Source: Dehalococcoidales bacterium (GTDB lineage: Bacteria > Chloroflexota > Dehalococcoidia > Dehalococcoidales > RBG-16-60-22). Taken from it: a stretch of 49,125 nucleotides of DNA. Within the stretch, counting starts at the first letter, position 1. Each line of letters opens with the position of its first letter. Where the stretch lies: NCBI GenBank assembly GCA_034430515.1, contig DAOUEP010000027.1:1-49125 (forward strand), written 5' to 3'. The notes under the pieces are model-generated. The model did not search any database and was not told the DNA's origin. It worked only from the letters and a program-made list of their open reading frames with translations. Positions 6,699 through 45,975 of this stretch are shown in pieces. A program made the translations under genes and the position numbers.

Positions 6699-6811
6699 AA
6701 AAGTGACAGGGTTGTATTGGTGCCGTCTCGGTCGTTGCCGATCCAAGCGACTTATTTTATTAAGGTCAATACTCCCGGCTCACCGCCATTACGGTCGGTG
6801 GCCTACTATAA

Positions 6812-7995: not shown

Positions 7996-8270
7996 TTTTC
8001 TTGAAGGCGGGGTAGTTTTTTACCTCGCCCTCTTTGTCCCTGTGAGGAAATCCCCCTTAATCCCCCTTTTTCAAAGGGGGAAACTGTGAAAGAAAGATAA
8101 GACGTTATAGCTTCTCCCTTTGGCAAAGGGAGAACGAGAGGGATTTTGGAGGGGAGGGGCAAAACCCTCGCGCTAAGCGGCGGATGCCGCGAGGGTGTTT
8201 ACCCGCCGAAGCTTCAGCGCAGGCGGGGCTAGGGTGGGAATAGATAACACCGAGGGGCGGAGAGGAGATA
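7993..8270 (+). repeat. Composite repeat element (modules M1, M2, M3 and M4 with insert; core at 8232-8246)
   Basis: It shares TAGTTTTCTTnAAGnCGGGGTAG...TACCTC with 33468-33505. Its hairpins CCCCCTTTTTCAAAGGGGG and CTCCCTTTGGCAAAGGGAG, and GCTAAGCGGCGGATGCCGCGAGGG...GGGTGGGAATAGATA, are shared with the 25.6, 33.7 and 45.8 kb copies. Confidence 0.9.
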
Positions 8271-8338: not shown

Positions 8339-8809
8339 ATTTACGCAATCATCGAAACCGGCGGCAAGCAGTATAAAGTAACCGAAGGCCAGACCCTCAA
8401 CGTCGACCTCCTGGAGAAGGCCAGCGGCCCGGTGGAGCTGGACAAAGTCCTGCTCATCGCCGACGGCGCTGACGTCACCGTGGGGAAGCCGGCCATCGCG
8501 GGCGCCAGGGTGCTGGCTACGGCCAAGGAAAACGGCCGCGCCCGAAAGATAATCGTCTTTAAATACAAGGCCAAGGTACGCTACCGCCGCAAGACCGGCC
8601 ACCGCCAGCCCTACACCACCATCAGCATCGATAAGATACTCCCGCCGGGGGCGGAGGCGCCCAAGCCGGTCGCCAAGAAAGCAGCTCCCAAGCCGACCGC
8701 AGAGAAGGCTTCGCCTAAACCGGCCGCAAAGAAAGCGTCGCCCAAGCCGGTCGCCAAGAAGGCGGCCCCGCGGCCCAAGAAAACAGAGGTAACCCCCGAT
8801 GGCGCATAA
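8339..8809 (+). CDS. rplU: 50S ribosomal protein L21 with Lys/Ala/Pro-rich C-terminal extension
   Basis: The canonical L21 N-terminus (I)[17 protein letters not shown] begins at the ATT at 8339, 6 nt after GGAGG (8328-8332). The track ORF from the GTG at 8432 is N-terminally truncated. Confidence 0.88.
8657..8785 (+). repeat. In-frame 27-bp tandem repeat (about 4.5 units) encoding (A/S)PKPxAKKA
   Basis: The units are gcgcccaagccggtcgccaagaaagca / gctcccaagccgaccgcagagaaggct / tcgcctaaaccggccgcaaagaaagcg / tcgcccaagccggtcgccaagaaggcg / a partial unit. Confidence 0.85.
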
Positions 8810-9053
8810 AAAAGGAGGCGGCACCAGCCGCAACGGCAGGGACTCTCAGGGCCAGCGGCTCGGCGTCAAGCGGTTCGCCGGGCAGCAGGTCAACGCGGGC
8901 ACCATTCTGGTGCGCCAGCGCGGCACGCGCATTCACCCCGGCCTTAACGTGGGCATGGGCAAAGACCACACTATCTACGCCACCATCGACGGCGTCGTCA
9001 AGTTCGAGCCTATCGCCAATAACCGCCGCAAGGTCAGCGTTTACAGCAGCTAA
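8799..9053 (+). CDS. rpmA: 50S ribosomal protein L27
   Basis: The sequence reads [29 protein letters not shown]. It overlaps the rplU stop by 11 nt. Confidence 0.95.
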
Positions 9054-9057
9054 GATT

Positions 9058-9264
9058 ATGAAAGAGAAGATTCATCCCCAGTATTATACCGACGCCGAGG
9101 TCGTCTGCGCCTGCGGCCACCGCTTCACCACCGGCTCCACCCGCAAGGAGCTTAGAGTGGAGGTGTGCTCCAACTGCCACCCCTTCTTCACCGGCGAGCG
9201 GCGCATGCTGGACACCACCGGGCGCGTCGAGCGCTTTAAGAAGCGCTACAAGCTGGATGACTAG
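9058..9264 (+). CDS. rpmE: 50S ribosomal protein L31 (Zn-ribbon type)
   Basis: The sequence reads [10 protein letters not shown]...CACGH...[10 protein letters not shown]. Confidence 0.95.
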
Positions 9265-9286
9265 CCGGCAAATCAGAAAGGAAGGC

Positions 9287-10263: not shown

Positions 10264-10332
10264 TCCAGCCCCCTCCGCCCCTCGGAGGTATCTATTCCCA
10301 CCCAAGCCGCCCTCGGCACATCCGCGGCTTAT
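10264..10332 (-). repeat. Solo arm copy of the repeat family (core complement at 10289-10303)
   Basis: Its reverse complement matches 1664-1729 almost base for base. Confidence 0.85.
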
Positions 10333-17530: not shown

Positions 17531-17790
17531 GAGCTGCCTCCTTGCGCTATGGGGTGAATTATCCGCCTCGCCGGGGCCGCCTACGCATGATAAAGCCAAA
17601 CGGCGGTGCTGTCAATCCGGTCGCGATGTCACACATATTGTACTGGCGCCGCCCGGCGCTGTATGTGATAAAAGTTGCATTAATCACACCGGGGCGATAG
17701 TAAAATATAGAATAAATGCTCTGCTAAGTATAGCATATCCCGCCCGGTATTGCCCGGCGGGACGGGCACTAATCACCGAAAGGAAGGGAA

Positions 17791-18039
17791 ATGACCGAGA
17801 AGAAAGTAGTTATCTATTCCACGCCCACCTGACCTTACTGTGGAAAGGCGAAGGAGTATCTTTCGCAAAAGGGAATCAAGTACACGGAATACAACGTGGC
17901 CGCCGACCGGGATAAAGCTAAAGAGATGGTGGCCCTGACCAAACAGATGGCGGTGCCGGCCATCATCATCGATGACAAGGATATCGTCATCGGCTTCAAC
18001 GTCGCCAAGCTGGACGAGCTGCTGTCAGCCAAGAAATAA
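17791..18039 (+). CDS. Glutaredoxin-like protein with in-frame UGA (putative selenocysteine) in the U-P-Y-C redox motif
   Basis: The translation is MTEKKVVIYSTPT[TGA 17830-17832]PYCGKAKEYLSQKGIKYTEYNVAADRDKAKEMVALTKQMAVPAIIIDDKDIVIGFNVAKLDELLSAKK. GGAAGGGA precedes the ATG. It is not in the ORF track because the TGA splits it. Confidence 0.75.
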
Positions 18040-18047
18040 GGCCGCCT

Positions 18048-18131
18048 TTAGAGGTCTTTCTTTAGCTGCTCAAACTCTTCACGGGTTATTTCGCCCTTGG
18101 AGTAGCGCTCCCGCGCTATGTCCAGGGGCAT
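18048..18131 (-). CDS. Possible 27-aa SHOCT-domain mini-ORF
   Basis: MPLDIARERYSKGEITREEFEQLKKDL resembles the SHOCT consensus. No clear SD is present. Confidence 0.25.
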   Translation of the reverse strand: MPLDIARERYSKGEITREEFEQLKKDL

Positions 18132-18240
18132 TGGCTTAGGGCATAATAGTTAAAATTTCATGTGATTTTAGTTACATACACCCCGAGGACGGAAAAATTA
18201 AAATTATACTAGTGGTTCCAACAAATCAAGGAGGTAGGCA

Positions 18241-18699
18241 ATGAATTTGACCAGAATCCTGATCATCGGTATTATCGTGCTGGGCGTGATTGGCATCGGC
18301 ATCGGCGGGGTCTTTGTACAGCAGGGGTTCGCCAAGGACAACCTGCTCAAAACAGCTATGGAGCAGGAGAAGATTACCCTGGGCATCCCCAGCGACAAGC
18401 TGGCGGCCGGTGAGGTTATCGATACGGCCAAAGAGGCCCAGATTGCCGGCGATACCGTCCGCGAGCACCGTCACAGCATCGCCCCCACCTACGGCGACCT
18501 GCTGGGGGGCAAGCAGTTCGACCCCACCAACCCGGAGCAGCTGACCTACGCCCAGGCGCTCAACCTGGAGAACTACCTGTACCTGGCCGTGCTCGGCTTC
18601 GGCGTGACGCAGATTGCCATGGGGGCGGGGGCGGCGATGATTGTCCTGGGGCTGGCCCTGGTGGCCACCGGCGTCGTCCTCGTTCGCCACAGGCACTAG
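18241..18699 (+). CDS. Hypothetical membrane protein (N- and C-terminal TM helices)
   Basis: AAGGAGG lies 6 nt upstream. The protein has a TM helix at each end and a soluble middle. Confidence 0.7.
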   Translation: MNLTRILIIGIIVLGVIGIGIGGVFVQQGFAKDNLLKTAMEQEKITLGIPSDKLAAGEVIDTAKEAQIAGDTVREHRHSIAPTYGDLLGGKQFDPTNPEQLTYAQALNLENYLYLAVLGFGVTQIAMGAGAAMIVLGLALVATGVVLVRHRH

Positions 18700-21540: not shown

Positions 21541-21606
21541 CCCCCCGCCCCCCTCGTTGTTATCTTTTCCCACCCACCCGCCCCCGGTGAAGCCACGGCT
21601 TAGCCC
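21541..21606 (-). repeat. Degenerate solo arm copy of the repeat family
   Basis: The reverse complement GGGCTAAGCCGTGGCTTCACCGGGGGCGGGTGGGTGGGAAAAGATAACAACGAGGGGGGCGGGGGG aligns with the 1664-1729 type. Confidence 0.7.
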
Positions 21607-25504: not shown

Positions 25505-25835
25505 TTAATCTCTAAGGGGTTCAAGGGGGACTCTCACCTCCCCCTTGCCCCCCCCGCCCGGAGATTTTTTATCCCACCCGGCCCGCCCGTTGGCATTCCG
25601 CCACTACTCACTGGTGTTTCCCCGTCCCGCCCCGGGAAAATCCTCCTTTAGTCCCCCTTTGCAAAGGGGGACAAACGTATGGGTTGCCGGCGGTGATTCT
25701 AAAGGAAAGTGGTATCGTCTCCCTTTCGTAAAGGGAGACGGAGAGGGATTTTGGTGGGGTAGGGGAAACTAAGAGATAAGCGGCGGATGCCGCGAGGGTG
25801 GCCAGGGTGGGAATAGATAACACCGATAGGGTGGG
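25505..25835 (+). repeat. Full-length composite repeat element with inverted terminal arms (core at 25805-25819; inverted core at 25570-25579)
   Basis: The left arm TTTTTTATCCCACCCGGCCCGCCCGTTGGCATTCCGCC is an imperfect inverted copy of the right arm GGCGGATGCCGCGAGGGTGGCCAGGGTGGGAATAGATAA. Internal hairpins are GTCCCCCTTTGCAAAGGGGGAC and GTCTCCCTTTCGTAAAGGGAGAC. Confidence 0.88.
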
Positions 25836-27071: not shown

Positions 27072-29183
27072 ATGAGTAAGAAACTGGTTATCGTGGAATC
27101 CCCGGCCAAGGCCAGAACGCTGGGCAAGATACTGGGCCGGGGCTACAGCCTCAAGGCGTCGTTGGGGCACGTGCGCGACCTTCCCCGGGGCCAGATGGGG
27201 GTGGATATCGAAAACGGCTTTTCGCCCCGCTACGTGATACCTCGCGTCAAGACCAAGCTCGTCAACGAGCTCAAGCAGGCGGCCAAAGAGGCCAAGGAGA
27301 TTTACCTGGCCACCGACCCCGACCGCGAGGGCGAGGCCATCGCCTGGCACCTGGCCGAGCTTATCCGCAGCGACGACAAACCCTACCACCGCGTCGTCTT
27401 CCGCGAGATTACCGAGGAGGCCGTCCGGAGCGCCTTCGCCAGCCCGCGCGATATCGACATGCAGCTGGTGGACGCCCAGCAGGCGCGCCGCGTCCTGGAT
27501 AGACTGGTCGGCTATAAAATCTCGCCCCTGCTCTGGAGCAAGGTGCGCAAGCGCCTCTCCGCCGGGAGGGTGCAGTCGGTGGCGGTGAAAATCATCGCCG
27601 ACCGCGAGCGCGAGATTACGGCCTTCAAGCCGGTGGAGTACTGGGTCATCGAGGCCGAGCTCCGTCAGCCGAAGGATAGGACCGTCTTCCGCGCCACGCT
27701 CGTCGGGCTCTGCGGCGGCGGCAAGCTGGAGATTCATAACGAAAAAGAGGCGGACAAGATTGAAGCGGCGCTGAAAGACGCCGCCTACGGCGTGCTCAAC
27801 GTCGCCACCAAGAAGGCCGCCCGCCAGCCGGCGCCCCCCTTCACCACCAGCACCTTGCAGCAGGAGGCCTGGCGCAAGCTGAGATTTTCGGCCAAGCAAA
27901 CCATGGCCGTCGCCCAGCAGCTCTACGAGGGCCTGCCCCTGGGCAGCGAGGGCAGCGTCGGCCTGATTACCTACATGCGCACCGACTCCACCCGCATCGC
28001 CGGGTCGGCCATCGCCGAGACGCGCCAGTTCATCGGCGAGAAGTACGGCCCTAAATACCTGCCGCCGCGCCCCCGCGCCTTCACCGCCCGCAGCCGCGGC
28101 GCCCAGGAGGCTCACGAGGCCATCCGCCCCACCCGCACCTACCGCGAGCCGGGCGCCGTCAGGAGTTTCCTCAATAACAACCAGTTCCGCCTCTACGACC
28201 TCATCTGGAAGCGGCTGGTGGCCAGCCAGATGGCGGCGGCCCTCTTCAATAACACCACCGTGGACATCGAGGCCAGCGACGGCGACGACTACCTGCTGCG
28301 CACGGCGGCCTCGGTCAATACCTTCCCCGGCTTTATGACCCTCTACAGCGAGGGCAAGGACGAGGAAGAAGACGAGGCCAAAAAGACCCTCCCCGAGCTT
28401 GCCAAAGACGATAAGCTGGATCTCATTGATGTCCACCCCGACCGGCGCTTCACCCAGCCGCCGCCCCGCTATACCGAGGCCACCCTGGTGAAGACCCTGG
28501 AGCAGAACGGCATCGGCCGCCCCTCCACCTACGCCCCCACCATCGCCACCATCCAGGATCGGGAGTACGTCGTCAAGAGCAAGGGCGTATTCCAGCCCAC
28601 CGAGCTGGGTCTGGCCGTCAACGACCTGCTCGTTGAGCACTTTCCGGACATCATCAACGTCAAGTTTACCGCCGATATGGAAAACGAGCTGGACGACATC
28701 GCCAGCGCCGAGCGCGACTGGCCCGGCGTCATCGGCAAATTTTACGCCCCCTTCGACAGGGACTTGCAGAAGGCGCTGGCCACGGCGGAGCGGGTCAAGC
28801 TGGAGGACGAAAAGACCGGCGACGCCTGCCCCAAGTGCGGTAAGCCCCTCATCGTCAAGACGGGCCGCTTCGGCAAGTTCGTCGCCTGCTCCGGCTATCC
28901 GGAATGCCGCTACACGCAATCTTTCCAGGTGAAGACCGGCGTGAAATGCCCCCAGTGCGGCGGCGACCTGGTGCAGCGCATCTCCAAGAAGCGCCGGACC
29001 TTCTACGGCTGCGCCAACTATCCGGAGTGCACCTTCGCCACCAACTTAAAGCCCCTGCCCACCCCCTGCCCCAAGTGCGGCGGCCTGCTTACTCAGCGGG
29101 GGAAGCAGGCTATCTGTAATAAATGTGATTATAAAGGGAAGATACCGCAGGAAGAAAAAGAGGCGGAGAAAACTACGGGATAA
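27072..29183 (+). CDS. topA: DNA topoisomerase I
   Basis: It has a TOPRIM N-terminus ([10 protein letters not shown]), the active-site region ITYMRTDS, and C-terminal Zn ribbons (CPKCG, CPQCG). Confidence 0.96.
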
Positions 29184-29185
29184 GC

Positions 29186-29268
29186 CGTTGATGATGCAGG
29201 GCGGTTCACCCGCCGAAGCTTTAGCGTAGGCAGGCCGGGTGGGAATAGATAACATGGATGGGGCGGGG
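29186..29268 (+). repeat. Solo arm copy of the repeat family (core at 29237-29251)
   Basis: The sequence is GGTTCACCCGCCGAAGCTTTAGCGTAGGCAGGCCGGGTGGGAATAGATAAC. Confidence 0.8.
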
Positions 29269-29276
29269 TGGTTATC

Positions 29277-30233
29277 ATGGAAGATGATTGGGACAAATAT
29301 ATAAAGCTGTTTCTTGATTATCTTAAGGCGGAACGCAACGCGTCTCCGTACACCATGCGCAATTACCTGATATCACTCGGTGCGTTTGAGAGCTTCTGCA
29401 AAAAGGATAATACCTACACGCCTAAAAAGGTTGAAAAACCATTAGTACGCAGTTTTCTCAACCATCTCAATGAAACGGGAATTGCCCGTTCCAGCATCGC
29501 CCGTAATATGTCAGCGATACGCTCTTTCTTTAGGTATCTGCAGAGAGAAGAAATCGTGCCCAAGAACCCTGCAGCCAATATCACATCGCCCAAGCTAGAC
29601 CGCCGTTTACCCTCCTTTCTTACCAGGGAAGAGGTCAAGCATATTGTAGAATCACCAGGTTTGCCCAAACAACCTAATAAGATGTCATATCCGGTATTAC
29701 TACGCGATATTAGCTTGCTAGAATTACTTTACGCCTCCGGCCTGCGGGTAAGCGAGGTTGTCAGTATAGATTTGGAACAGATGAATCTTGACTATAATGA
29801 AATCCGGGTTAAAGGCAAAGGATCAAAAGAGAGAAACGTGTTGATTGGCGAGCCGGCAGCGCGAACCTTGAGGACTTATCTTAAAGAGGCCCGCCCGGTG
29901 CTTGCTGGAGATAAGAAGTCCCGGGCAGTTTTTATTACCAGCTACCAGGATGAAGACGGTATCCAGTCCGGCGAGCGTCTGACCGTGCGCCGGGTTCAGA
30001 AAATCATCAAGAAGTATTCTAGGGACATAGGTAAAAGGGTGCACCCGCATATCCTCCGCCACACCTTCGCCACCCACCTCCTCGACGGCGGCGCCGACCT
30101 CAAGGTGGTGCAGGAGCTTTTAGGCCACGCCGACCTGGCCTCGACGCAGATTTACACCCACGTCAGCCAGACTCGCGCCCGCCAGATTTACCTGGCCGCC
30201 CACCCCATGGCCAGGGGCAAGGGAGAAGAATAA
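29277..30233 (+). CDS. xerC: Tyrosine recombinase XerC/XerD family
   Basis: The N-terminal SAM-like core-binding domain reads YLKAERNASPYTMRNY. The catalytic residues are R...HILRHTFATHLL...GHADLASTQIYTHV. The dprA-topA-xerC synteny is conserved. Confidence 0.88.
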   Translation: MEDDWDKYIKLFLDYLKAERNASPYTMRNYLISLGAFESFCKKDNTYTPKKVEKPLVRSFLNHLNETGIARSSIARNMSAIRSFFRYLQREEIVPKNPAANITSPKLDRRLPSFLTREEVKHIVESPGLPKQPNKMSYPVLLRDISLLELLYASGLRVSEVVSIDLEQMNLDYNEIRVKGKGSKERNVLIGEPAARTLRTYLKEARPVLAGDKKSRAVFITSYQDEDGIQSGERLTVRRVQKIIKKYSRDIGKRVHPHILRHTFATHLLDGGADLKVVQELLGHADLASTQIYTHVSQTRARQIYLAAHPMARGKGEE

Positions 30234-30240
30234 ATAATAT

Positions 30241-30266
30241 GTCATTCCCGCTTTCACGGGAATGAC
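30241..30266 (+). terminator. Perfect 10-bp hairpin GTCATTCCCG-ctttca-CGGGAATGAC after xerC
   Basis: It lies immediately 3' of the xerC stop and has no clear T tract. Confidence 0.4.
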
Positions 30267-30317
30267 CGGATATGGTAGATTTAGAAATATATTTCGCTCA
30301 CAACAGGACTAACCGAC

Positions 30318-31406
30318 ATGACTCCCAAACAAAACGATAGACTCATCCGACTGCGCGCCCGCTTCGCCGCAAGTGAAATTGACGCCATGCTCGTCTCGCG
30401 GGCGGAGAACCGGCGCTACCTCTCCGGCTTTCACGGCTCGGCGGGTTTCCTGCTGATAACGGCGGCCAAGGCGGTGCTGGCCACCGATTTCCGCTATACC
30501 GAGCAGGCGCTGGCCCAGGCGCCGGACTTTGAAATTCTGCGCATCGCCAATAACCTGGCCGACTGGTTCCCCGGTCTGGTGGCCGACCTGGGCGTAAAGA
30601 GCCTGGGTTTCGAGGAGGATGACGTCACCTACCACTGCTACCGCCAGCTGACCGACACCCTGGGAAAGAAATCCTCCGCCGCCCGCCTGATTCCCCTGGA
30701 CGGCCTGGTGGAGCAGTTACGTCTGGTAAAAGAGCCGGGGGAAATCGAGCTTATCGCCCGCGCCGCCGCCATTACCGATACGGCTTACGAGGCCGTCGAG
30801 AGCGCCATCCGGCCCGGCGTCTCGGAGCTTGCGATAGCCTGGGAGATGGAGAAGGCCCTCCGCGAGAACGGCAGCCAGGCGCTGCCCTTCGAGATTATCG
30901 TCGCCTCCGGCCCCAACGCGGCTCTGCCCCACGCCCGCCCCTCCGGGCGCATTATCGAAGCGGGCGAGCCGGTCGTCGTCGACATGGGCGCCTGCTACGA
31001 GGGCTACGCCGCCGACCTCAGCCGCACCGTCTGCGCCGGTAATCCGGACGCTACTTACAAAAAGGTCTACCAGACCGTCCTTGACGCCCAGACGGCGGCC
31101 GTGGCTATAATAGCGGAGGGGGTCACCGGCCACCGCGCCGACGCCGCCGCCCGCAACGTTATCACCAGGGCCGGCTACGGCGAGGAGTTCGGGCACTCCC
31201 TGGGGCACGGCGTCGGGCTGGCCGCCCACGAGCTGCCCCGTCTCAGCCCCGGCGCGGAGGAGCCGCTCGGCAACGGCATGGTCTTCACCGTGGAGCCGGG
31301 CATTTACATCTCCGGGTGGGGCGGCGTGCGCATCGAAGACCTGATGACGATGGAAAACGGGAGGGTCAAACCCCTCTCGCAGGCGAGAAAGGCGAGCTAT
31401 GATTAA
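30318..31406 (+). CDS. pepP: M24 family Xaa-Pro aminopeptidase
   Basis: It has a creatinase-like N-terminal domain plus metal ligands ([33 protein letters not shown]). Confidence 0.88.
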
Positions 31407-31959
31407 CGCGACCGAACTGAGAAAGGGAGTTATCATTGAGTTCGAAGGCAAGCTCTACCAGGTCATCGATCACCAGCACGTCAAGATGAAGCGGACGGCG
31501 CTGGCCAAGGTAAAGATGCGCGACATCACCGGCGGCCATACCATCGAGCGGTCTTTCCAGTCGGACGAGCGGCTGGTGCGGGCGCGCCTGGACGAGCGGC
31601 CGATGCAGTACCTCTACCACGACGGCGGGCTTTACTACTTCATGGACCAGGAGAGCTTCGAGCAGACGCCGCTGGCCGCCGAGCAGCTCGGCGACGGGGT
31701 GAATTATCTCAAGGAGGGCGTCACCATCGTCGAGGTGGCCAGCTACAAGGGCGACATCGTTGGCGTGACGCTGCCCATCACCGTCGAGCTGGCCGTCACC
31801 GATACCGATCCCGGCTTCAAGGGCGATACCGCCACCGGCGGCAGCAAGCCGGCCACGCTGGAGACGGGACTCTCCGTCCAGGTGCCCCTCTTCGTCAACG
31901 AGGGCGACATCATCAAGGTGGATACCCGCAGCGGCACCTACATCGAGAGGAGCGGCTAG
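31399..31959 (+). CDS. efp: Elongation factor P
   Basis: The sequence contains [27 protein letters not shown] and PGFKGDTATGG.KPA.LETG. Confidence 0.95.
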   Translation: MINATELRKGVIIEFEGKLYQVIDHQHVKMKRTALAKVKMRDITGGHTIERSFQSDERLVRARLDERPMQYLYHDGGLYYFMDQESFEQTPLAAEQLGDGVNYLKEGVTIVEVASYKGDIVGVTLPITVELAVTDTDPGFKGDTATGGSKPATLETGLSVQVPLFVNEGDIIKVDTRSGTYIERSG

Positions 31960-31962
31960 CCC

Positions 31963-32625
31963 GTGCTCAAGGCCGACCTGCATATCCACAGCGAGTATTC
32001 CCTGGACTGCACCACGCCCCTGGAGCGCATCGTCGAGCGCTGCCGGGCGCTGGGGATAAACTGCATCGCCATCGCCGACCACGGCACCGCCGAAGGAGCG
32101 CTCAAGATGGCCAGAATCGCCCCCTTCCGCGTCATCGTCGCCGAGGAAATCCTGACCACCCAGGGTGAAATCATGGGCATGTTCCTCAAGGAGACCATTC
32201 CCAGCGGGCTCACCCCCGACGAGACGGTCAAGCGCATCAAGGCCCAGGGCGCTCTGGTGAACATCCCCCACCCCTTCGAGACGATGCGCGGCTCCGCCCT
32301 CAAAGACTGGTGCATCGAGGAAATCGCCAAATACATCGACCTCATGGAGGTCTTAAACTCGCGCAGCCCCTTCCCGGCCAACACCGAGCGGGCCAAGGCC
32401 TTCGCCGCCAAGCACGGCATCCCCGGCAGCGCCGGGTCGGACGCCCACTCCGTCCGCGAAATCGGCAACGCCTACGTGGAGATGCTGGAGTTTAACACCC
32501 CGCAGGAGTTCCTCCAGGCCCTGGCGCGGGGGCGCATCGGCGGGAGGCGCTCCAGCCCCCTGGTGCACTTCTACTCCACCTGGGCCAGATTACGGGGCAA
32601 GCTCTTCCCGCGGAGGCGGGCTTGA
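31963..32625 (+). CDS. PHP-domain metal-dependent phosphoesterase
   Basis: The sequence contains DLHIHSEYSLDC, IADHGT and GSDAHS. Confidence 0.8.
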   Translation: MLKADLHIHSEYSLDCTTPLERIVERCRALGINCIAIADHGTAEGALKMARIAPFRVIVAEEILTTQGEIMGMFLKETIPSGLTPDETVKRIKAQGALVNIPHPFETMRGSALKDWCIEEIAKYIDLMEVLNSRSPFPANTERAKAFAAKHGIPGSAGSDAHSVREIGNAYVEMLEFNTPQEFLQALARGRIGGRRSSPLVHFYSTWARLRGKLFPRRRA

Positions 32626-33455
32626 GCCGCTACCGCATCGGCTGGTTCGCCACCGGCCGGGGCACCGGCTCGCGGGCGCTGCTGCGGGCCGCCTGGGAAG
32701 CCATTGCCTCCGGCCGGCTCGACGCCGAGATAAATTTCGTCTTCTGCAACCGCGGGCGCGGCGAGACCGAGGCCACCGACGGCTTTCTGGATATGGTCGA
32801 GGGCTACGGCCTGCCGCTTATCACCTGTTCTTACCGGGACTACCGTAAACAGGTAGGCGCGCCACGCCCCGACCCCGCTGCCCCGATGCCCCAATGGCGC
32901 ATCGACTACGACCGCGAGGTAATGAAGCGCCTTAAGGGATACCACCCCGATTTGTGCCTGCTGGCGGGCTACATGCTGATTAACGGCCCGGAGCTTTCCT
33001 ATAAGTACGACTTCCTCAACCTGCACCCCGCCGCCCCGGACGGGCCCGCCGGCACCTGGCAGCAGGTCATCTGGAAACTCATCGAGAGCGGCGCCGCTAC
33101 CCAGGGGGTGAAGCTGCACGTGGCCATCCCGGAGCTGGACGTGGGCCCCACGGCCGCTTACTGCCTCTTTCCCATCCGCGGCAAGCCTTTTGATAAGCTC
33201 TGGGAGGAAATTGAGGGTAAGTCCGTGGCCGAAGTTAAGGAAACACAGGGCGAGGATAACGCCCTCTTTAAGGAAATCCGCCGCCACGGCGCGGCGCGGG
33301 AACTGCCGCTGGTGGTGGCCACGCTGCGGGCCTTCAGCCAGGGGCGGGTGAAAATCACGCCCGATAAAAAAGTGGCCGATTCTTCGGGTAAGCTTATCGG
33401 GGGGTATGACCTCACCGCCGAGATTGATGAAGCTGTCAAAGGCGAGCTGGGCTAG
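32622..33455 (+). CDS. Formyltransferase-fold (PurN-like) protein
   Basis: The N-terminal domain resembles Formyl_trans_N (IGWFATGRGTGSRALL, LLAGYMLI, NLHPA). The specific function is not supported. Confidence 0.55.
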   Translation: MSRYRIGWFATGRGTGSRALLRAAWEAIASGRLDAEINFVFCNRGRGETEATDGFLDMVEGYGLPLITCSYRDYRKQVGAPRPDPAAPMPQWRIDYDREVMKRLKGYHPDLCLLAGYMLINGPELSYKYDFLNLHPAAPDGPAGTWQQVIWKLIESGAATQGVKLHVAIPELDVGPTAAYCLFPIRGKPFDKLWEEIEGKSVAEVKETQGEDNALFKEIRRHGAARELPLVVATLRAFSQGRVKITPDKKVADSSGKLIGGYDLTAEIDEAVKGELG

Positions 33456-33467
33456 CTGTAATTTTTA

Positions 33468-33818
33468 GTTTTCTTTAAGACGGGGTAGATTCTTTACCTC
33501 ACCCCCTGTATCCCCCTCTCCAAACTCAGTATCAGGAAAAACCATTTGTTCTTTGTTTGGAGAGGGGGAATTTTCATTAAGAGGGGCTAGCGCCCCTCTT
33601 CGCGGGCTACTCCCTGTAGTTAAATCCTTCTCACTCTCCCTTTACGAAAGGGAGACGATAGCCTTGTTCTTAAGGATTACCACCGGCAACCCGTTGGTTT
33701 GTCCCCCTTTGTAAAGGGGGATTAAAGGAGGATTTCAGAGGGGTAAAGGGGTGGCATCTCCGAGCTAAGCGGCGGATGCCGCGAGGGCGGCCAGGGTGGG
33801 AATAGATATCTAAGTGGG
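33468..33818 (+). repeat. Composite repeat element with modules M2 and M3 inverted relative to the other copies (core at 33794-33808)
   Basis: 33617-33662 is the reverse complement of the CGTCTCCCTTT..AAAGGGAGAGTGAGAAGGATTT module of 45.8 kb. 33676-33750 is the reverse complement of the 25630-25700 module. The terminal GCTAAGCGGCGGATGCCGCGAGGGCGGCCAGGGTGGGAATAGATA keeps the usual orientation. Confidence 0.88.
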
Positions 33819-33909
<91 letters not shown>

Positions 33910-33951
33910 GCTCTTATTGTAGCAGATTACGATAGCGGTTGAGTAGATTGG

Positions 33952-34043
33952 TGGCGGAGAGGGTGGGATTCGAACCCACGCTACGCTTGCACGTAGACCG
34001 CTTTTCGAGAGCGGCACCATAAACCACTCGGACACCTCTCCGC
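33952..34043 (-). tRNA. tRNA-Ser (anticodon CGA), long variable arm, CCA encoded
   Basis: The reverse complement reads GCGGAGAGGTGTCCGAGTGG...CCGCTCTCGAAAAGCGG...GGTTCGAATCCCACCCTCTCCGCCA. Confidence 0.9.
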
Positions 34044-34052
34044 GGCTACTAA

Positions 34053-34081
34053 ATTTTAACGGAAAAGGGGGCGGAGAGCAA
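34053..34081 (-). promoter_or_regulatory. Promoter of the tRNA-Ser pair
   Basis: The minus strand reads TTGCTC, a 17-nt spacer, then TAAAAT, ending 9 nt before the tRNA 5' end. Confidence 0.65.
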
Positions 34082-34095
34082 GGGTGGGCTTGCCG

Positions 34096-34560
34096 TTACG
34101 TCATCCGGTACAGGCGGTGCAGGTAAGCCTTAAAGCCGTGTTTCTTCCAGAAAGGGTAGCCTACTTGATTTGCCGCGGCCACATCCAGCTCAATCATGTC
34201 GATGTCCCGGGTCTTGAACCAGTCGAGTATCGCCGCCATCAGGTTGGAGCCGACGCCGCGGCGGCGGTAGTCGGCCCTGACCGCCATTTCGTCGATGAAT
34301 CCGTATTTTTCTCTTTTAAAGGCCGGAGATGAGTTTTTCACCTGGGCAATGGCGTGGCCGATGACCTGGCCTCCCTCTAGGGCGACCAGGACGAGGTTAT
34401 TCTCGCCGGCCATGATTTCTCTGAGGTGCTCCCCGAAACCCTCGCGGACGTTGGTCACCATGGGGTAGCGCGGGTCGATATTCTCATGAAAGCGGGCGAA
34501 CTCTTCCCAGCAGTCGATAATGCCGGGGACGTGAGAGTCCTCCGCCGGGACTATCTCCAT
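34096..34560 (-). CDS. GNAT family N-acetyltransferase
   Basis: The acetyl-CoA binding motif reads RRRGVGSNLM. Confidence 0.85.
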   Translation of the reverse strand: MEIVPAEDSHVPGIIDCWEEFARFHENIDPRYPMVTNVREGFGEHLREIMAGENNLVLVALEGGQVIGHAIAQVKNSSPAFKREKYGFIDEMAVRADYRRRGVGSNLMAAILDWFKTRDIDMIELDVAAANQVGYPFWKKHGFKAYLHRLYRMT

Positions 34561-45663: not shown

Positions 45664-45975
45664 ACCCCCTAACCCCCACTCCGCAGAGTTTTTCTTTCCC
45701 ACCCGGCCCGCCCTGTGGCATCCTGCCACCACTCGCTGGGGGTTTCCCCACCCCGCTCCGGTGAAAATCCTCCTTAATCCCCCTTTATGAAAGGGGGACA
45801 ATAGTTCTGGCACGATGGGTCGTCTCCCTTTGTAAAAGGGAGAGTGAGAAGGATTTTGGAGTGGGGTGGAGAAAACTCCGGGCTAAGCGGCGGATGCCGC
45901 GAGGGCAGTTTACCCGCCAGAGCCTTGGCGCAGGCGGGGCCAGGGTGGGAATAGATAGCTCCGGCAGGGTGGGGT
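45664..45975 (+). repeat. Full-length composite repeat element with inverted terminal arms (core at 45943-45957; inverted core at 45695-45704)
   Basis: It is collinear with 25546-25835 along its whole length, apart from one ~20-nt and one ~28-nt indel. Confidence 0.88.

Follow-up and report, generated by a model that had tools for sequence, protein, structure and literature searches.

A mosaic xerC allele in an uncultivated Dehalococcoidales lineage, probably formed by in-place replacement with lower-GC homologous DNA

In-place orthologous (xenologous) replacement is a general phenomenon, exemplified in Streptococcus and Neisseria by mosaic pbp genes. Among site-specific recombination systems, the XerS/difSL module of streptococci and the XerH/difH module of epsilonproteobacteria have been inferred in the literature to be acquired by transfer, while free-standing homing endonucleases, such as those encoded by the T4-type seg and mob genes, co-convert the markers that flank them. 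Xer systems with two recombinases or with one have been reviewed previously (PMC5357621). The present analysis concerns xerC, a gene for a XerC/XerD-type tyrosine recombinase at positions 29277 to 30233 (+ strand) of contig DAOUEP010000027.1 (assembly GCA_034430515.1), which derives from an uncultivated member of the Dehalococcoidales (Chloroflexota); the whole 49,125-nucleotide (nt) stretch analysed is referred to below as the window. The window xerC is very likely a recombinant allele that arose by in-place replacement, through homologous recombination with DNA of a lower-GC (guanine plus cytosine) Dehalococcoidales lineage. Below, the low-GC form of the gene is termed type A and the GC-rich native form type M.

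The kind of event is well known, namely a mosaic core gene; here it is seen for xerC in Dehalococcoidales, with parental and recombinant haplotypes, and a literature search for earlier descriptions of a mosaic xerC, or of recombination at this locus in Dehalococcoidia, returned nothing specific. As in mosaic pbp genes, a divergent homologue appears to have taken the place of a block within a conserved gene, with crossovers where conservation is highest; neither reading frame nor synteny is disturbed, and the locus is polymorphic within the species. In contrast to the pbp genes, the gene affected here is that for the chromosome-dimer resolvase, the exchange has no known selective agent, the host belongs to the uncultivated Dehalococcoidales, and the donor would lie about 17 GC points away, with the block visible by eye. 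The XerS/difSL and XerH/difH cases share with this locus the horizontal exchangeability of core Xer machinery; whereas in those cases a whole recombinase and its adjacent dif were replaced by another family, in the window the 5' four-fifths of the gene would have been swapped within one orthologous family, with no adjacent dif. A dif site between topA and xerC, which could serve as a landing pad for integrative mobile elements exploiting Xer (IMEX) as described for xerS and xerH, was considered and rejected, as these genes abut or overlap in most relatives.

The compositional contrast within the gene is pronounced. The host contig averages about 63% GC, and the genes flanking xerC are GC-rich, as the first-pass annotation of this DNA had noted, with 62.6-67.8% GC and a GC content at third codon positions (GC3) of 0.81-0.91. 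Positions 29277-30039, by comparison, have 46.5% GC (355/763) and a GC3 of 0.52, and the composition returns to the host level in the last 190 nt or so, where 30040-30233 has 64.9% GC and the C-terminal part (C-part) of the gene a GC3 of 0.84-0.86. The same annotation had put the first ~770 nt at about 37% GC; this value holds for the two 60-nt blocks that it cited, each with 22 G+C, which are nevertheless local minima in a segment that averages 46.5% and whose other 60-nt blocks range from 48 to 63%. In sliding 600-nt segments, the lowest GC content of the entire 49 kb is found at the segment starting at 29251 (0.448, about 4.4 standard deviations below the mean of 0.631; SD 0.042). A two-boundary likelihood scan of the third-codon positions over topA, xerC, and pepP delimited a low-GC3 block at 29111-30035 (GC3 0.50 inside versus 0.87 outside; 2ΔlnL = 159), with support intervals of 29081-29117 for the left boundary and 29954-30056 for the right one. 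The reading frame of 318 codons is uninterrupted across the right-hand junction, which is abrupt and falls, as had been proposed, at the conserved catalytic codons (HPHILRH, with HPH starting at 30042). The left boundary, on the other hand, had been placed at the end of a repeat arm and does not lie there: the low-GC tract begins within the final ~70-100 nt of topA, and the repeat only marks the position (29252) from which the two alleles become unalignable.

The native allele is retained in a conspecific strain, represented by the Joint Genome Institute (JGI) contig Ga0307425_1004804 (L091). L091 and the window show no mismatches over 27898-28978 and three over 30057-34490, and their other differences are confined to 28979-30056, from the 3' end of topA to the L260/R261 codons of HPHILRH. 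The left part of this tract (28979-29204, + strand), which extends from the 3' end of topA into the spacer, carries 24 clustered single-nucleotide polymorphisms (about 10%, over 28979-29202), mostly A/T in the window and G/C in L091, and the topA 3' end is accordingly AT-shifted (55.3% GC against 60.3% over 28985-29183). Alignment of the two sequences fails after GGGTGGGAATAGAT, following the repeat core at 29251. The foreign (type A) segment that follows (29252-30056, + strand; 46.5% GC, GC3 0.52) cannot be aligned to L091 and consists of a 25-nt leader and codons 1-260. The final mismatch of the tract lies at 30056, which places the right junction between the L260 and R261 codons. Beyond it, the 3' part of xerC (30057-30233, + strand; codons 261-318, encoding R261, H284, and Y293) has a host-like composition and is common to the native allele, with a single mismatch to L091 before the stop codon (30098, itself a segregating site). 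The L091 gene encodes a 299-amino-acid (aa) protein, and its N-terminal part (N-part) has 62.1% GC and a GC3 of 0.86. At the protein level, the N-parts (255 residues) of the two alleles are 53.8% identical and the C-parts 98.4%. The left break point is strain-dependent, at 28979 in the window and at 28833 in L002, a JGI contig that has the window's xerC allele but also 17 clustered differences in topA at 28833-28984 present in neither the window nor L091; this patch indicates a third haplotype and repeated recombination in the 3' end of topA.

Comparison with related loci helps to identify the foreign allele. GC-rich relatives carry GC-rich xerC genes, and across about 30 Dehalococcoidales loci the N-part of xerC generally tracks host GC, as illustrated by L016 (N-part GC3 0.86 versus 0.83 in topA and 0.80 in pepP) and L050 (0.83 versus 0.80 and 0.73). 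For the XerC of L091, over 100 database sequences are related at 76-82% identity, the best at 89%, matching the situation of the window's TopA, which is 75-78% identical to that of many Dehalococcoidales metagenome-assembled genomes (MAGs). The native type is also kept by L097, a relative of L003 (pepP 92.8% identical in nt), whose xerC is 88.7% identical in nt to that of L091, a similarity that would be expected from vertical descent and is in line with species divergence. The closest relatives of the window XerC, by comparison, are those of a sister species (L003/L004) at 81%, and all others are at 69% or below. L003 and L004, whose flanks are 84-90% identical in nt to those of the window, share the mosaic pattern (GC3 of 0.46 in the N-part, 0.86 in the C-part, and 0.82-0.88 in the flanks).

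Phylogenetic analysis, based on Kimura-distance neighbour-joining trees with 200 bootstrap replicates (distance trees only, not maximum likelihood), revealed that the N-part has affinities at odds with the trees of topA and pepP. In the N-part tree, the window and L003 are nested in the group {L005, L007, L008, L027} (clade A) with 96% bootstrap support. In the pepP tree, these four loci and L019 form a clade without the window and L003, and in the topA tree the members with a complete topA (L007, L027, and L019) likewise form a clade from which the window and L003 are absent. The clade-A genomes have 49-57% GC and their xerC N-parts 44-54%, with 43.8-47.2% in L005-L007, versus 46.5% in the window. 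Since the L091 allele is host-like and the window allele phylogenetically misplaced, the low-GC block is considered to be the import. Its donor would be another, lower-GC Dehalococcoidales lineage with the same gene order. The earlier suggestion of allelic replacement by a foreign low-GC homologue, with one crossover in the catalytic motif, is thus supported, and each of the checks suggested with it gave a favourable result; the source appears to be another lineage of the same order and not a distant organism.

Within the foreign segment, 29889-30011 (+ strand) forms a sub-mosaic patch that spans approximately residues 205-245 and contains the 8-aa insert QDEDGIQS; it is similar to a third XerC lineage (L093/P0022 and P0026) and not to clade A. 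In a sliding comparison of 25 codons, residues 217-241 have an identity of 0.84 to L093 versus 0.36-0.48 to clade A. The QDEDGIQS patch is also present in L003 (0.88), and therefore the imported allele was presumably already mosaic.

According to the proposed scenario, a tract of about 1.1 kb (28979-30056), running from the last ~200 nt of topA through the spacer to codon 260 of xerC, would have been exchanged by RecA-type recombination between diverged homologues. The left crossover would lie in the conserved 3' end of topA, and the right one at or just after 30057, the start of the sequence coding for the C-terminal catalytic segment (RHTFATHLLDGGADLKVVQELLGH...Y). In an alignment of 20 homologous sequences, the C-terminal ~58-60 residues of XerC are near-invariant across the order, and all of the longest exact nt matches (17-23 nt) that the native gene shares with type-A genes fall within the C-part; together with the conserved topA end, this is what RecA-type recombination would predict. 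Donor and recipient types hardly differ in the C-terminal 58 residues, and the product would therefore be a complete type-A-like XerC that is presumably functional, with an active site of mixed origin in which R157, the catalytic Lys, and H258 would be foreign and R261, H284, and Y293 native.

The predicted protein has the features of a chromosomal XerC/XerD recombinase, with which it shares domain architecture, catalytic residues, and a housekeeping neighbourhood. Pfam and NCBIfam models support this assignment: the SAM-like core-binding N-terminal domain (PF02899) matches residues 9-91 (E 8e-19), the tyrosine-recombinase catalytic domain (PF00589) matches residues 115-298 (E 2e-40), and the NCBIfam model NF001399 ('tyrosine recombinase') scores 294.5, above its cut-off of 279. 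All catalytic motifs are intact, namely GLRVSE (R157), GKGSKER, HPHILRH (H258 and R261), LGH (H284), and IYTH (Y293), and the catalytic R, K, H-x-x-R, H, and Y occupy invariant columns in the 20-sequence alignment. The window allele differs from typical chromosomal XerC proteins in falling below the NCBI equivalog cut-off for XerC (TIGR02224; 308.3 bits versus 335.15), which the native XerC of L091 passes (338.3), and in bearing a 7-aa and an 8-aa insertion that most Dehalococcoidales XerC proteins lack. An in-frame GTG at 29268 is a possible alternative start upstream. The first-pass annotation had noted that xerC keeps its position after dprA and topA, and the window order dprA-topA-xerC-pepP-efp indeed agrees, from dprA to pepP, with that found across Dehalococcoidales (L003-L009, L093-L095, and many loci from GTDB). 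Two other identities were rejected. An integron integrase, the name given by some sources to relatives such as P0022, is inconsistent with the scores for TIGR02249 (139 bits versus a cut-off of 265) and NF011946 (85 versus 435). An integrase of a phage or mobile element is inconsistent with the housekeeping flanks, and a search of phage genomes with the N-part of the window xerC returned nothing above 37% identity, which lends no support to phages or mobile elements as a reservoir of the allele.

The arrangement is reproduced in independent data. An identical XerC protein is encoded on two further JGI contigs from different samples, L001 (99.93% identical in nt) and L002 (99.48%), the latter spanning both junctions. 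Read-level support consists of 31-mer unitigs and contigs rather than raw read pairs: Logan unitigs of runs X1, X2, X5, and X6 extend from 29154, 29172, or 29260 through 30050 or 30086 with zero differences, and in runs X3 and X4 the same xerC span is covered by unitigs in two pieces. Misassembly of the window xerC is thereby excluded by the agreement among L001, L002, and the unitigs of six runs. In run X1, the unitig of the window allele has a depth of 21.3, that of the L091 allele 8.3, and the shared downstream contig 34, and the downstream contig has a loose end before 30057 that spells the L091 allele exactly; therefore, both alleles co-occur within single samples. The structure of L091 is likewise backed by other runs, with an X1 unitig over its positions 1419-2577 (depth 8.3) and sequences of X2 and X5 spanning the junction between topA and the L091 insert described below. 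The locus is thus dimorphic in the population, the GC-rich native allele persisting in co-occurring, near-identical strains. The window sequence itself turns up almost exclusively in salt-marsh metagenome runs.

Several observations weigh against this account of the window allele. L091 is a single JGI contig, whose internal junctions are backed by 31-mer unitigs from other runs alone. The nearest candidate donors share no more than 69% aa identity with the window XerC, which means that the source lineage has yet to be sampled; a scan of metagenome contigs with the window XerC returned two loci, one of them L091, and no closer donor. The type-A alleles of the window and L003 are 19% apart in nt, compared with 10-16% in the flanks, and neither displays GC amelioration; one old acquisition of type A or two independent ones may both fit. 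In addition, the N-part lies below its flanks in GC3 in clade-A genomes also (0.51 versus 0.67-0.70 in L007; 0.59 versus 0.63-0.72 in L027), which may reflect an intrinsic or repeatedly mobile property of the type-A allele class.

The coexistence of the two forms can be read more broadly. A tentative and rather unlikely extension is that the chromosome-dimer resolvase of salt-marsh Dehalococcoidales has been dimorphic for a long time, possibly across species boundaries. If so, selection could maintain both forms, for example through conflict with Xer-exploiting mobile elements or with a small HNH-like gene of L091, and the topA|xerC junction would be a hotspot of recombination, with a dispersed repeat as its seed. 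A related alternative to simple replacement holds that the exchange was driven or maintained at such a hotspot, either by the HNH/endonuclease-VII-like gene of L091 through homing-type repair with co-conversion of the flanks, or by balancing selection on two Xer types. This alternative is considered improbable, and the evidence bearing on it comes mainly from the junction itself. Four related lineages (the window, L091, L003, and L097) present four different junction states, each involving low-GC DNA and all containing the dispersed repeat; both alleles co-occur in several samples; and the several left break points suggest repeated exchange.

In L091, an insert of about 500 nt with 30-41% GC (L091 positions 1326-1820) separates the repeat core from the native xerC and contains an open reading frame (ORF) of 98 aa (1357-1653), whose TAA stop codon reads CAA, a sense codon, in run X8, extending the ORF to about 133 aa. 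This ORF shows weak similarity to HNH/endonuclease-VII proteins (Pfam PF02945, E 0.009; PHROG 1808, E 0.0014; T4 endonuclease VII in PDB, E 0.035), with all matches below curated thresholds. The setting resembles T4-type homing in that a small HNH-like ORF lies in the spacer beside one of two divergent alleles and the tract ends are variable in the flanks. It differs in that the nuclease assignment is weak, the ORF stands beside the native allele and is missing from the window, and no target site is known. The window spacer (29184-29276) contains no ORF, and thus no endonuclease gene lies next to the converted tract. In L003 and also L004, a 190-aa Cys-rich, zinc-ribbon-like ORF with 39.8% GC (L003 positions 8705-9277) is found between topA and xerC, bracketed in L003 by two copies of the dispersed repeat. 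A role for this ORF as a homing endonuclease co-transferred with the allele was rejected: family searches with it gave no matches, and its few homologues belong to an ordinary Dehalococcoidales family with a conserved home locus, a PHP-[ORF]-plsY context near recA-recX-rny, where they are intrinsically low in GC (35-36% in 55% GC genomes). It resembles a copy of that ordinary gene that has been relocated or transferred. Searches of phage genomes with the 190-aa ORF of L003 and the 98-aa ORF of L091 returned no matches. In L097 (positions 1-720), an ORF upstream of xerC (77-649) starts with the first ~8 codons of xerC and continues as a copy of the C-terminal zinc ribbons of TopA (71% aa identity to TopA residues 577-696), followed by a low-GC tail in which a further CxxC pair occurs; this fusion is apparently left over from a previous rearrangement of this junction. 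Overall, the junction is exceptionally plastic among these relatives, which weakly hints at a hotspot where selfish or selected processes may play some part.

The direction of the exchange must also be considered, since type A is the commoner form among recovered contigs (the window, L001, L002, L003, and L004) and the deeper one in run X1 (21.3 versus 8.3). If type A were the resident form in the group of the window and L003, the GC-rich allele of L091 and L097 would have been imported from other GC-rich Dehalococcoidales. Such a reversed polarity is distinctly improbable: host-like GC3 is a property of the L091 allele (0.86) and not of type A, the L091 and L097 alleles are mutually closest and track species divergence, and the relatedness of type M to other Dehalococcoidales mirrors that of topA, whereas type A is phylogenetically misplaced. 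It is even harder to reconcile the data with a model in which no transfer took place and the GC content of the 5' 780 nt was lowered in place by a mutation bias or by lineage-specific selection, for instance to throttle xerC expression through rare codons. The low-GC pattern of L003/L004 and the somewhat GC-poorer type-A N-parts of clade-A genomes would be compatible with such a model, yet it is highly improbable, given that the conspecific L091 combines identical flanks with a GC-rich N-part that matches the window protein at only 54% of residues, a divergence well beyond what in-place drift could produce, that GC-rich relatives carry GC-rich xerC genes, that the boundary is abrupt and reaches into topA, and that the N-part tree conflicts with those of the flanking genes. 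An assembly artefact, in which the contig switches organism at the conserved 3' sequence of xerC, has a negligible probability: although 30057-30100 is common to unitigs of several species and forms a branch point in 31-mer graphs, the same arrangement occurs in three independent JGI assemblies and in two NCBI MAGs of the sister species, unitigs of several runs span 29154-30086 without differences, a chimera would require two switches returning to the same strain, and the X1 depths are roughly additive (21.3 + 8.3 versus 34 downstream).

With in-place replacement as the preferred explanation, the locus offers a nucleotide-resolved natural case in which a single-copy core gene of an uncultivated lineage would have been partly overwritten by a divergent homologue, with a crossover pinned to catalytic-motif codons and both alleles side by side in one habitat. 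For MAG annotation and binning, it illustrates that a low-GC patch in a core gene need not mean contamination or chimerism. For Xer biology, it would constitute a natural domain swap, in which exchange affected the N-terminal DNA-binding domain together with most of the catalytic domain and spared the C-terminal active-site segment, and it could be used to ask what sets dif recognition in Chloroflexota. No new kind of system is revealed; this is an ordinary, though well-documented, mosaic core gene.

The repeat arm reported upstream of xerC does exist and is one copy of a dispersed intergenic repeat (29171-29268, + strand), with the core GGGTGGGAATAGATAAC at 29237-29253 and an optional 32-nt insert at approximately 29205-29236; this copy supplies the stop codon of topA. 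The core is invariant and occurs eight times in the window versus none in 100 shuffles, on the + strand at 1693-1709, 8232-8248, 25805-25821, 29237-29253, 33794-33810, and 45943-45959, and on the - strand at 10287-10303 and 21559-21575. The whole repeat is about 75 nt long, or about 105 nt in the three copies that contain the optional insert, and its fuller consensus is CTACGGGaTAAGCcGcGGATGcGCCGAGGGtGG-n3-core-n2-CGAGGGGCGGgG. The same repeat is located upstream of xerC in L003, L091, and L097. Structured-RNA tests of the repeat gave no Rfam match and no consensus fold, and its inconsistent orientation relative to neighbouring genes lends no support to a promoter role.

Downstream of xerC, the low-GC spacer to pepP (30234-30317, + strand; 84 nt) contains a perfect 10-nt hairpin (30241-30250/30257-30266; GTCATTCCCG/CGGGAATGAC) and a 12-nt palindrome, GAAATATATTTC; because it is identical in L091, this spacer lies outside the exchanged tract. 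In the sister species L003, xerC and pepP overlap and the spacer is absent. Among the clade-A loci, L007, L027, and L008 have an N-part GC3 below that of the flanks and a C-part GC3 above it (0.51, 0.67-0.70, and 0.79 for N-part, flanks, and C-part in L007), which suggests that the same kind of N-part exchange may have recurred in other Dehalococcoidales. L019 belongs to the clade-A genome group yet has a mainstream xerC. Elsewhere in the window, 17581-18450 is the sole other region below 52% GC in 600-nt segments (minimum 0.477); it is largely non-coding, bounded by the end of a minus-strand gene (about 17599) and the start of another gene (18241), and has a 47-aa ORF (17896-18039). In addition, a match to the Rfam pan motif (RF01749) is present at 6719-6803 on the - strand, scoring 41.7 bits versus a gathering score of 36.2.

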